A DNA stretch of 64,000 nucleotides from Patescibacteria group bacterium (GCA_042569595.1 JBHPHI010000001.1:8326-72325); one strand, 5' to 3'. Positions 41,089 to 43,825 are shown, counted from the stretch's first letter. Numbers and translations are program-made. The notes: generated by a model not told the origin, from the sequence alone.

Positions 41089-41535
41089 ATGAAAAAAGAA
41101 GTTCTCATCGCAATAATTGTAGGTTTTTCACTCGGTCTTGTGATCACTTTTGGTATCTACAGAGCGCAAAAGTCCATAAAAGAAAGAGCAAATAGAAACA
41201 ACACTACTCAAGAAACCCAAACAGAAGAACTTCCAGAAATTCTCCTATCCATAACACAACCTCAAGACGGGGACATATTCGACCAAGACTCAATTACCAT
41301 TGGCGGAATCACTCAAAAAGAGTCACTAGTTACCGCTATCTCATCAGAAGACCACCAAGCCACCCAAGCAGATGAGTTGGGTAATTTTTCTATAGAATTT
41401 GAGCTTGATACCGGAGCAAATGACATCACCATTACAAGCTTCAACCAAGATGGAACCAAACAAGAAAAAGAAATGACCGTTGTATATACAACTTATGACT
41501 TTGAAGAAGCATCAGAAGAGGAAGCAGAAGAATAA
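41089..41535 (+). CDS. membrane-anchored/secreted protein with Ig-like region, acidic tail
   Basis: N-terminal TM anchor; ...ITQPQDGDIFDQDSITIGG... beta-rich segment. Confidence 0.45.
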   Translation: MKKEVLIAIIVGFSLGLVITFGIYRAQKSIKERANRNNTTQETQTEELPEILLSITQPQDGDIFDQDSITIGGITQKESLVTAISSEDHQATQADELGNFSIEFELDTGANDITITSFNQDGTKQEKEMTVVYTTYDFEEASEEEAEE

Positions 41536-41536
41536 A

Positions 41537-42316
41537 ATGAAGAAAAAAATTGCATCCATAATATCAATCCTTTCATTTTTACTTATTTTATCTCTAACGA
41601 GTGCTGTCATGGCTCAGGAAGAAAGTACTGATAGCGGGCAAATAAACGACGAAGAAATCAGCAAGAGCATTAAAGAAAGAATAAAAAAAGTCGCCACAAA
41701 AGCAGGATCATTAATAATTGAAAAGAGAAAAATAGCTCTCATCGGCAGTGTAGAAAAAATTGCAAACGATACCTTAACAATTAAAACAAAAGACGAAATA
41801 AAGCTTGCCAGCGTTTCCGCCACAACGGTGTTCGTAAGAAGCCCAGGAAACACTAATCAAAAATTAGAAGACGTATCAATAAATGATTACGCGATAGCGA
41901 TGGGATTTATAAATGGCTCTGATGTCCTAGAAACCAAAAGAGTTCTTCTTTACTCAAAGGCTCCAGAAAAAACCAAAAAAACCTCAATTGCAGGAGTAAT
42001 CTCATATATAGATGAGGATGAAGATGCCGTAAGCATCATCTCCAACCAAGAAGAGATTGTACTAGAACTAACCTCCTCAACAGACCTAAGTATTCAACAA
42101 GGGACACAAGTTAACGAAATTGACCTATCTAATTTAGAGTTAGGCCAATACGTTACAACCATTTACATCCCCACCAATGACGAATACTCCACACCCAAAG
42201 CTTTAACCATCCTTGCTTCAACCATAAAAAAAGACATTGAAACTATCCAAAGTGAACAAGCCTCAGAAAGCGCCAAAATCGAAGAAGAATCTATCCCCCC
42301 AGAACTTGCTCTCTAA
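41537..42316 (+). CDS. secreted hypothetical protein
   Basis: Signal peptide MKKKIASIISILSFLLILSLTSAVMA|QE; the track ORF 41480 overlaps the previous gene. Confidence 0.45.
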   Translation: MKKKIASIISILSFLLILSLTSAVMAQEESTDSGQINDEEISKSIKERIKKVATKAGSLIIEKRKIALIGSVEKIANDTLTIKTKDEIKLASVSATTVFVRSPGNTNQKLEDVSINDYAIAMGFINGSDVLETKRVLLYSKAPEKTKKTSIAGVISYIDEDEDAVSIISNQEEIVLELTSSTDLSIQQGTQVNEIDLSNLELGQYVTTIYIPTNDEYSTPKALTILASTIKKDIETIQSEQASESAKIEEESIPPELAL

Positions 42317-42317
42317 A

Positions 42318-42346
42318 TTGACAACACAACTAATCAAAAGTAAAAT
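42318..42346 (+). promoter_or_regulatory. near-consensus sigma70-type promoter of the hisS leader
   Basis: TTGACA (42318-23) - 17 nt - TAAAAT (42341-46), immediately after the upstream stop codon. Confidence 0.6.
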
Positions 42347-42356
42347 ACTCAAAATC

Positions 42357-42431
42357 ATGAAAAACACATACAAAACCACAAAACATCACCACACTCATAC
42401 ATTTAGGCGGGTGTCTTTTGTCATGCATTAA
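42357..42431 (+). CDS. candidate 24-aa His-rich leader peptide MKNTYKTTKHHHTHTFRRVSFVMH
   Basis: ATG 10 nt after the -10 hexamer; His at 4 of 5 consecutive codons (42384-42398); lies between the promoter and the attenuator hairpins upstream of hisS. Confidence 0.5.
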   Translation: MKNTYKTTKHHHTHTFRRVSFVMH

Positions 42432-42478
42432 AAAATAAAAACAAATAGTTAATCACCCGCCACCGAGCGGGTTTTTTA
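42406..42478 (+). promoter_or_regulatory. candidate transcription attenuator (antiterminator/terminator alternative) upstream of hisS
   Basis: GGCGGGTG (42406-13) pairs with CACCCGCC (42454-61), or ACCCGC (42455-60) pairs with GCGGGT (42467-72) followed by TTTTT. Confidence 0.55.
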
Positions 42479-42580
42479 TTGTGGACCCTGAATTCTACGA
42501 GTAAAACGAGCAAGAATTCAGTTGGTACGCAAGATGCAAAGACATAAAACAATAAAAATATAATTTTAGGAGATGCTACA

Positions 42581-43825
42581 ATGAAAAATATGAGAAAAAC
42601 ACCACAAACCCTAAAGGGTTTTAGAGACTTCTTACCTGAGGAAAAAATAAGAAGAGATTTTGTAATGGGAAAAGTTCTTGAGGTGTTCAAAAAATTTGGT
42701 TTTGAGCCTCTTGAAACTCCAACCCTAGAATACGCCTCCCTTCTCTTAGGAAAGTATGGAGAAGAAGCAGATAAGCTTGTCTACACATTCAAAGATCAAG
42801 GCGATAGAGAAATTGGCTTAAGATACGACCAAACAGTCCCGACAGCAAGAGTTCTTGCTCAATATCAAGGAATGCTACCTAAATACTTTAGGAGGTATCA
42901 GGTCCAAAATGTATTCAGAGCTGAAAAGCCACAAAAAGGTAGGTATAGAGAATTTACTCAATGCGATATAGACATTTTTGGATCTACATCCCCCACCTCA
43001 GATGCTGAAATAGTCGCCTGTACTTATTTTGCTTTTGAAAATGTGGGTTATCCCAACATCGTTATCAAAATAAATGATAGGCAAGTTCTTTTAGAAAATC
43101 TAAAGCCGTTTGAAAAAGATGGCGTTTCCACTCTTTCAATAATTCAATCAATAGATAAGTTGGATAAAAAATCTAAAGATGAAGTCGTAAGTGAGTTGAT
43201 AAAAAAAGGCTTAGATCAAAATGACGCCAAAAAGGCCATAGAGTCTATAGAAAATGCGACTATTTCAAAAAATTTGCAATCAATTATTGATTCCTCTGTT
43301 AGTCTTGGAGTTCCTGAAGAAAACATAAGATTCACTCCCGAATTAGCCAGAGGTCTAGACTATTACACCGGCATGATTTTTGAAGTAATTATTCCAGAAT
43401 ACCCAGTAGGGTCTTTTGGCGGTGGTGGAAGATACGATAATCTCATTGAGCAACTTGGCGGAAATAAAACTCCAGCAGTTGGAATAGCTTTTGGTTTCGA
43501 TCGCATGGTCGAAGCAGCACAGGAGCTAGAACTCATACCTGCAAACAATCTTGGATCTCAAGTTTTGATTACATTGTTTCCGGGATATGAAAATAAGTCT
43601 CTAAAAGCAGCCAGCAAACTAAGAAAGGCTGGCATCAAAACCGAAGTATTTACCGATCCAGACAAACTCGGAAAACAATTTAAATACGCTAACACCAGGA
43701 AAATTCCTTATGTGCTTGTTATCGGAGAAGATGAGGCCAAAAACAACAAGGTCACCCTCAAAAACATGGATTCTGGTGATCAGGAAGTCATCACTCTTGA
43801 CGATGTTATTTCGCGTCTGACATAG
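42581..43825 (+). CDS. hisS: histidine--tRNA ligase
   Basis: PKGFRDFLPEE, class II motifs (...RYDQTVP..., ...FRAEKPQKGRYREF.Q...), GGGGRYD, anticodon-binding C-terminal domain. AGGAG Shine-Dalgarno. Confidence 0.95.
   Translation: MKNMRKTPQTLKGFRDFLPEEKIRRDFVMGKVLEVFKKFGFEPLETPTLEYASLLLGKYGEEADKLVYTFKDQGDREIGLRYDQTVPTARVLAQYQGMLPKYFRRYQVQNVFRAEKPQKGRYREFTQCDIDIFGSTSPTSDAEIVACTYFAFENVGYPNIVIKINDRQVLLENLKPFEKDGVSTLSIIQSIDKLDKKSKDEVVSELIKKGLDQNDAKKAIESIENATISKNLQSIIDSSVSLGVPEENIRFTPELARGLDYYTGMIFEVIIPEYPVGSFGGGGRYDNLIEQLGGNKTPAVGIAFGFDRMVEAAQELELIPANNLGSQVLITLFPGYENKSLKAASKLRKAGIKTEVFTDPDKLGKQFKYANTRKIPYVLVIGEDEAKNNKVTLKNMDSGDQEVITLDDVISRLT

Follow-up and report, generated by a model that had tools for sequence, protein, structure and literature searches.

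A putative histidine-codon leader-peptide attenuator upstream of hisS in Patescibacteria

Introduction

Does a short run of histidine codons govern the expression of a histidine--tRNA ligase gene in a bacterium of the Patescibacteria group? The question is raised by a locus within a 64,000-nucleotide (nt) stretch of DNA (GCA_042569595.1, JBHPHI010000001.1:8326-72325; the whole of this stretch is referred to here as the window), in which a His-rich small open reading frame (ORF) and a set of competing RNA hairpins lie between a near-consensus promoter and hisS. The original prediction for this locus was a transcription attenuator in which the His-rich ORF is translated, an antiterminator helix between segments A and B (A:B) excludes a terminator helix between segments B and C (B:C), and transcription then reads through into hisS. 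That model is supported by the presence of the same architecture upstream of hisS in 24 distinct relatives. The element is very probably a transcription attenuator of the ribosome-mediated (leader-peptide) kind, which responds to charged tRNA-His and regulates hisS, a conclusion that draws on comparison of sequences.

Gene regulation in the Patescibacteria (candidate phyla radiation, CPR) is almost unstudied because very few of these bacteria have been cultured. A conserved attenuator in this lineage would mean that reduced genomes retain a textbook sensor of tRNA charging, and the switch would offer a handle on how cells that are mostly unable to make amino acids perceive the supply from a host or from the environment.

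Results

The locus taken alone

A re-reading of positions 42100-42760 found every coordinate of the original prediction to be correct (Table 1). The leader promoter, which lies directly 3' of the TAA of the upstream ORF (42314-16), matches 11 of the 12 sigma-70 consensus positions and is the top match in a scan of 38-48 kb. The stem of the terminator, ACCCGC (42455-60) paired with GCGGGT (42467-72), is also in the list produced by a terminator scan. The product of the gene downstream scores 391.6 bits on the NCBIfam model TIGR00442 (cut-off 286.75) and contains both the tRNA-synt_His and the HGTP_anticodon domains of Pfam; on the strength of this score and of the anticodon-binding domain the gene is a genuine hisS and not a HisZ paralogue.

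How far such a layout could arise by chance depends on the composition of the strand on which it lies. The + strand of the window is C-rich over the whole 64 kb (16% G versus 23% C, with a GC skew of about -0.1 to -0.3), and at least three His in five codons are found in 5 of its 302 small ATG ORFs as against none of the 441 on the - strand. The leader ORF is alone among those small ORFs in having four His in five codons. When the region from the His codons to B is shuffled, the A:B duplex at -18.1 kcal/mol beats all 500 dinucleotide shuffles (mean -7.6 kcal/mol), which gives an empirical p of 0.002, the floor for 500 shuffles. Given a C/A-rich + strand with several His clusters among its small ORFs, a single locus is suggestive at most, and the single-locus evidence taken alone is modest. 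A search of the 64-kb window for other leader-peptide attenuators, as terminators preceded by a short ORF at leaderless promoter distance, gave none that was convincing.

The same composition is the main point in favour of coincidence, by which the hairpin and T-run would be the terminator of the upstream gene (41480-42316), a gene that has no other terminator after it, and the His-rich ORF would be a by-product of a CA-rich strand. The near-consensus promoter that separates the upstream stop codon from the ORF already speaks against this explanation, which the comparison with related genomes makes extremely improbable.

Recurrence upstream of hisS in related genomes

The comparison took in 80 hisS loci from species-representative genomes and 80 from metagenomes. 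All good hisS matches are Patescibacteria of the Microgenomates group, under labels that include Woese-, Pace-, Roizman- and Beckwithbacteria. An exact-sequence look-up found no copy of the window HisRS on record. Near-identical leaders were unavailable for comparison because the closest HisRS relatives are only 66-67% identical to that of the window, in both collections.

A blind scan of 161 sequences (2.03 Mb, both strands) was made for ATG ORFs of 8-45 codons with at least three His in five codons and an intrinsic terminator within 120 nt. It returned 32 matches, 30 of which lie upstream of hisS on the hisS strand. Counted as distinct peptides, 24 of 26 are upstream of hisS (binomial p = 7e-16), and 18 of 26 are within 450 nt of it (p = 4e-21). 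When the scan was repeated for 20 amino acids, enrichment upstream of hisS was found for His alone; Leu, for example, gave 33 matches with 27 elsewhere and Ser gave 24 with 22 elsewhere. The caution raised at the outset, that a CA-rich region inflates His codons by chance, thus describes a real bias of the + strand, but as an objection to the attenuator it is removed by this amino-acid control.

Coincidence is opposed further by the recurrence of the ORF-plus-switch arrangement upstream of hisS in 24 distinct relatives whose upstream genes differ, and include divergent tRNA-Ala genes, and by His being the sole enriched amino acid. The related loci, with hisS identities of 47 to 67%, are not assembly duplicates. 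It is this recurrence of the predicted element in related genomes that provides the decisive support for an attenuator.

The leader peptides of the family are 13 to 25 residues long and are conserved only in the His run and in the C-rich codons after it. Examples are MLLSNATTQVHHHTLL (locus L005), MTKVAVKLAHHHSLR (L010), MQYKTTKNTESHHHPLSRGL (L017), MRSLSLHHHHSHE (L061) and MINSRVLHHHHTHSFAAVVVQSFS (L128), the last of which has 24 codons, as in the window, and shares its HHHTH(T/S)F core. Such a lack of conservation points to the act of translation, and not the peptide, as the feature that would matter.

Two scan matches were rejected as chance, one on the opposite strand (L023) and one that overlaps a gene end before an ORF resembling ribosomal protein L31 by eye (L160). 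Short ORFs with only two adjacent His codons were seen upstream of hisS at L087, L112, L143/L030 and L016 (for example MQQLQMCSVAHHTLS), and L127 has an HHH ORF upstream of hisS with no strict terminator call (MKITLSFNNAHHHLP). These two-His ORFs and the HHH ORF of L127 may be weaker leader variants that the strict scan overlooked.

Two helices that compete for one segment

The minimum-energy fold of the 128-nt predicted leader (42353-42480) contains A:B and not the terminator. The A:B hairpin of the window is worth about -15.5 kcal/mol and the terminator about -10.3 kcal/mol, so that A:B would be expected to outcompete the terminator whenever A is free.

For the family, the RNA from the His run to the terminator loop, with the 3' arm excluded, was folded for the 24 distinct loci. 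In 19 of these the minimum-energy fold pairs the terminator 5' arm with a G-rich segment just past the His codons, while in the remaining five the G-rich segment pairs with the His-codon region to give a hairpin of the 1:2 type. Tested against dinucleotide shuffles, the strongest pairing of the post-His region with the terminator 5' arm comes out ahead in 18 of 24 loci (median z = -3.0, Fisher p = 2e-23). The start of A falls 3-15 nt past the last His codon at every one of the 24 loci, even where 45-57 nt of alternative positions are available.

The window's pair of A and B (Table 1) corresponds to CAGAGGGTT and AACCCTCTG at L125, GTTGGTTGGTT and AACCAGCCAAC at L061, and GTGGGAGTG and CGCTCCCA at L141. 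Across 23 distinct loci, 81.6% of the A:B cells are paired (59% in shuffles), with a covariation score of 0.60 against 0.23 in shuffles, a value that none of 500 shuffles reaches, and eight of the nine pairs are changed on both sides. The corresponding figures for B:C are 90.6% of cells paired (66% in shuffles), a covariation score of 0.66 against 0.20 (again reached by none of 500 shuffles), and all six pairs changed on both sides. As a control, sliding the partner columns by 1-3 positions drops the pairing to 41-54% for A:B and 29-56% for B:C. These counts were taken from register-anchored condensed blocks joined by artificial AAAAA linkers, chosen because variable spacer lengths defeat unguided alignment, and the alignment accordingly leans towards structure. 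An alignment of related hisS upstream regions had been suggested together with the original prediction; both the His-codon runs and compensatory changes in both helices were found.

Proposed mechanism

Transcription would start from the near-consensus promoter at about 42353, leaving a predicted 5' untranslated region of 0-4 nt, and on this (nearly) leaderless RNA a ribosome would begin at AUG 42357. When His-tRNA(His) is scarce, the ribosome would stall with its A site on one of codons 10-12 (HHH, 42384-92) and its leading edge at about 42396-42402, so that A (42406-13) would remain free. Free A would then capture B (42454-61) as B is synthesized, no B:C (42467-72) terminator would form, and the polymerase would continue into hisS. 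When His-tRNA(His) is plentiful, the ribosome would pass through A to the stop codon at 42429-31, and A would be covered, or otherwise kept from B, during the synthesis of B and C. Formation of B:C, together with the U-run, would in that case release a transcript of ~125 nt at 42473-78. The net effect would be a feedback holding tRNA-His charging constant. Where transcription starts, how the ribosome stalls and what regulation results are the parts of this account that we infer.

A ribosome covers roughly the nucleotides from -12 to +15 relative to its P site. On this measure A would be occluded during the reading of codons 17-23, and a ribosome at the stop codon would cover about 42414-42441, between A and B. 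The original prediction had the ribosome occlude A at the stop, a detail that would not hold, since on this measure the stop-codon footprint lies just 3' of A and the occlusion falls at codons 17-23. The position of A at 3-15 nt past the last His codon, common to all 24 loci, fits stalling at the first His codons.

This geometry also bears on the alternative that the hairpin switch is read by a protein or by uncharged tRNA rather than by a ribosome, with the His codons incidental or part of a binding site. We regard that as very unlikely. A weak 1:2 element and an involvement of the ribosome that we infer lend it something, but in every case the His codons belong to the reading frame of an ATG ORF at leaderless promoter distance, they lie upstream of A at the distance expected of a stalled ribosome, and the enrichment is specific to in-frame His codons. 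Nor is there a T-box or other Rfam match to suggest such a switch, either at E <= 10 (42200-42700) or at gathering thresholds (20 loci).

At gathering thresholds the Rfam scan, which covered the whole window and 20 family loci, returned tRNAs only, with no His_leader (RF00514) and no T-box (RF00230). The permissive scan (E <= 10, 42200-42700) likewise gave no His_leader or T-box match; its best leader-type match was Trp_leader at 20.7 bits (threshold 41), which was terminator-driven, and a sub-threshold match to rimP was seen on the minus strand. The T-box and His_leader identities were rejected on the lack of a covariance-model match.

Leaderless start of the leader ORF

No leader of the family relies on a Shine-Dalgarno sequence (SD). 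In most of them 7-11 nt separate the -10 hexamer from the leader ATG (10 nt in the window), and TTGAC(A/T)-like -35 hexamers precede most of them. Elsewhere in the window, 14 of the 54 long ORFs have a TATAAT match at five or more of the six positions 5-12 nt before the ATG and 18 of the 54 have an SD, while in many relatives hisS itself has TATAAT 6-9 nt before its ATG, that is, it appears leaderless. Because so many long ORFs share this layout and only a third have an SD, leaderless initiation is probably normal in this genome and the missing SD would therefore be a feature of the family. The lack of an SD before the leader ORF had been entered as a caveat; the observation is true and finds its explanation in the leaderless layout.

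Sequence between the terminator and hisS

Table 1. Features of the hisS leader region in the window (positions counted from the first nucleotide of the window)
Feature	Position	Strand	Remarks
-35 hexamer TTGACA	42318..42323	+	17-nt spacer to the -10 hexamer
-10 hexamer TAAAAT	42341..42346	+	ends 10 nt before ATG 42357
Leader ORF, 24 codons plus stop, MKNTYKTTKHHHTHTFRRVSFVMH	42357..42431	+	stop TAA 42429-31; no SD
Regulatory His codons CAT CAC CAC (ACT) CAT, putative ribosome stall site	42384..42398	+	His at 42384-92 and 42396-98
Segment 1 candidate, ACACTC	42391..42396	+	could pair with GGGTGT 42409-14; weak
Segment 2 (A), GGCGGGTG, putative antiterminator 5' arm inside the leader ORF	42406..42413	+	
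Segment 3 (B), CACCCGCC, predicted partner of A (antiterminator) or C (terminator)	42454..42461	+	
Segment 4 (C), GCGGGT and T-tract, predicted intrinsic terminator 3' arm and U-run	42467..42477	+	GCGGGT 42467-72, T 42473-77
Second hairpin, CTGAATTCT / AGAATTCAG	42488..42521	+	9 base pairs, 16-nt loop; between terminator and hisS
TATAAT, candidate attenuator-independent promoter of hisS	42559..42564	+	-35 region poor
hisS SD, AGGAG	42568..42572	+	8 nt before ATG
hisS, histidine--tRNA ligase, 414 residues, putative regulated gene	42581..43825	+	NCBIfam/Pfam

Past the terminator, positions 42478-42580 fold more stably than shuffled sequence (z = -2.44). The second hairpin in this region includes two GAATTC sites. 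Between the terminator and hisS, 13 of 18 leader-proximal loci carry a TACAAT/TATAAT-like hexamer, 6-22 nt from the hisS ATG, and in the window TATAAT (42559-64) may be a second, unregulated promoter giving basal expression of hisS. Basal expression of this kind would suit an essential gene, and it still leaves the antiterminator to be explained. In the window and in family loci the hexamer often precedes a purine-rich AAGAAAGAAA stretch.

The hexamer also lends support to a further explanation, namely that promoter, His-rich ORF and terminator are a self-contained unit encoding a micropeptide or a ~125-nt small RNA, that hisS is expressed only from the TATAAT at 42559-64, and that the link between the two is positional or made in trans. 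The -10-like hexamer is present between terminator and hisS in the window and in the 13 proximal loci, and at L017/L125 the T-tract is immediately followed by a TATAAT, 9 nt before the hisS ATG. Action in trans is reported for rnTrpL and peTrpL, a terminated attenuator RNA and a leader peptide of other bacteria. A stand-alone unit would have no use for an antiterminator, however, and A:B is statistically significant, keeps a constant position and covaries; its peptide would be one of variable length (13 to 25 residues) and non-conserved outside the His codons; and the genes that come after the leader at L035, L053 and L044 all share the hisS strand, with no obvious promoter unit in between. 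A role in trans could coexist with attenuation and would not replace it. Taken together, these points make an independent unit unlikely, and an attenuator that controls hisS in cis remains the preferred reading.

Genes behind the leader in relatives

The leader does not always stand before hisS alone. The order is leader-hisG-hisD-hisS at L035:458-4245 and leader-hisG-aminotransferase (class I/II)-hisS at L053:1043-4218. At L103:2089-4245 the leader is followed by a 169-residue ORF and then hisS; this ORF resembles hisG below the NCBIfam cut-off (33.7 versus 75.75 bits) and has no Pfam match. Where a short hisG adjoins a full-length hisS, HisRS may, as a speculative idea, double as the HisZ partner. 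The gene between leader and hisS at L037:2304-2996 is weakly like histidine racemase (NCBIfam NF033599, 52 bits against a cut-off of 300), and it too has no Pfam match.

At L061:1311-1543, 17 nt separate the end of a leader, complete with antiterminator and terminator, from a tRNA-His(GTG) gene, and the putative attenuator there seems to gate this tRNA gene directly. In the literature searched, no earlier report was found of a leader-peptide attenuator directly before a tRNA gene. The next ORF at L061 (ATG 1626) has its own TATAAT. A similar HHH ORF may precede the tRNA-His at position 634 of L019. More generally, tRNA-His(GTG) was seen upstream of hisS on the same strand in seven distinct loci (L009, L065, L072, L076, L019 and L146 among them); at L009 it ends ~33 nt before the hisS ATG, and at L065 and L072 the tRNA gene is preceded by an apparent conserved structured RNA and then two terminators.

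A gene of the TrpR family (Pfam PF01371) was also noticed directly upstream of the His leader at L086:1547-1828 (75 bits) and at L103:1632-1988 (67 bits). The histidine repressor HisR of the Firmicutes is a member of the TrpR family (PMC9413887), and these two loci may for that reason combine a repressor with an attenuator.

Discussion

The hisS leader of the window thus combines in-frame His codons, two competing helices and a recurrence in relatives that is specific to His. Several observations weigh against reading it as an attenuator. Both the start of transcription and the 3' end left by termination are predicted from sequence. The element is missing from most related hisS genes: under strict criteria, 20 of the 57 loci whose upstream spacer measures 120 nt or more have it. 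The stems are short, at 8 base pairs for A:B and 6 for the terminator. The registers behind the A:B and B:C counts were fitted to the best duplex on condensed, linker-joined sequences, and unguided MAFFT with RNAalifold on the raw leader regions (67-106 nt) recovers just three terminator pairs. The loci are, moreover, phylogenetically related, so that shuffle statistics overstate their independence. The 1:2 hairpin, which would act as anti-antiterminator or pause element, is at -4.7 kcal/mol no better than shuffles in the window, and its support across the family is marginal (3 of 24 loci individually, Fisher p = 0.004); it is strong in some family loci (-11 to -14 kcal/mol). The -10-like hexamer between terminator and hisS, in the window and in most proximal loci, means that hisS expression may partly bypass the switch.

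The position of the leader stop codon is a further difficulty. In the window and its subtype the stop codon lies well past A (16 nt in the window, 13-20 nt in the subtype), and a terminating ribosome leaves A uncovered. The termination decision must then hinge on timing or on steric hindrance, because the terminating ribosome does not cover A. About half of the family has a more classical geometry, with the stop codon immediately next to A.

It is quite possible, if somewhat short of probable, that the His-leader family extends across the Patescibacteria/Microgenomates as a histidine-supply sensor of largely auxotrophic ultra-small bacteria, built on leaderless ORFs and with hisS and remnant his genes as its regulon, joined by tRNA-His in at least one genome. 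The arrangements seen in relatives form an apparent evolutionary series, from a leader before his-biosynthesis genes and hisS in some to a leader before hisS alone in others. For the mechanism to work, transcription and translation have to be closely coupled on leaderless transcripts; if it is true, the family would be indirect evidence of tight transcription-translation coupling in CPR bacteria. On the practical side, the family could enter RNA-family databases, and it flags small ORFs that gene callers overlook. Its interest comes mainly from the lineage, from the leaderless leader ORFs, and from hisS and tRNA-His as targets.

By its architecture the element is, in all likelihood, a new lineage-specific member of the textbook class of leader-peptide attenuators, one that no Rfam family matches. 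Full-text literature searches found no earlier report of leader-peptide attenuation in the Patescibacteria or candidate phyla radiation. The original prediction held that aminoacyl-tRNA synthetase genes outside the Proteobacteria are usually described with T-boxes. This is the case for the canonical hisS of the Firmicutes, but leader attenuators have already been predicted outside the Proteobacteria, for trpS and leuS of Streptomyces, where they are of the classical kind (PMC1262725), and as a His leader upstream of hisZ and of a hisS paralogue in Bacillus (PMC2965389).

The enterobacterial his leader (hisL, RF00514) shares with the window element a short ORF with tandem His codons, alternative hairpins and, on the proposed mechanism, the sensing of His-tRNA charging through ribosome position, and the leader of the present family, like hisL, heads histidine-biosynthesis genes in some relatives, hisG and hisD among them. 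It differs from hisL in having 3-5 His codons where hisL has seven in a row, in its simpler helices and leaderless ORF, and in a target that in the window would be hisS and not a biosynthetic operon; RF00514 is matched neither in sequence nor in structure. The His leaders of the Firmicutes, compared here by architecture from the text of the papers (PMC2965389, PMC9413887), are predicted before his operons in the B. cereus group, the Peptostreptococcaceae and the Erysipelotrichales with 3-5 His codons (PMC9413887). As in the window element, a short ORF with a run of 3-5 His codons immediately precedes a terminator/antiterminator, and one such leader stands before a hisS-family gene; these leaders belong to another phylum and would have evolved independently. 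Canonical hisS in the Firmicutes is under a T-box, whereas in the window canonical hisS would itself be the target of the attenuator. That His T-box acts on the same gene, on a signal of tRNA-His charging and with a terminator/antiterminator output, but unlike the attenuator proposed for the window it binds uncharged tRNA directly and needs no translation.

For the leaderless ORF a parallel is found in the mycobacterial leaderless polycysteine short ORFs, the Cys attenuators (bioRxiv 10.1101/834739). There, an ORF at or near a leaderless 5' end is reported to sense one amino acid through its codons; the amino acid and the phylum differ, and the two systems are likened on the sensing ORF only. 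With E. coli pheST, which has pheM as its leader, and with Streptomyces trpS and leuS, the window element would share a leader attenuator that senses the synthetase's own amino acid and so gives a homeostatic feedback on charging; the amino acid, the lineage and the sequence are different, and there is no homology. The pheM leader is translated from a conventional ribosome-binding site, while the leader ORF upstream of the Patescibacteria hisS would be read from the very 5' end of its transcript.

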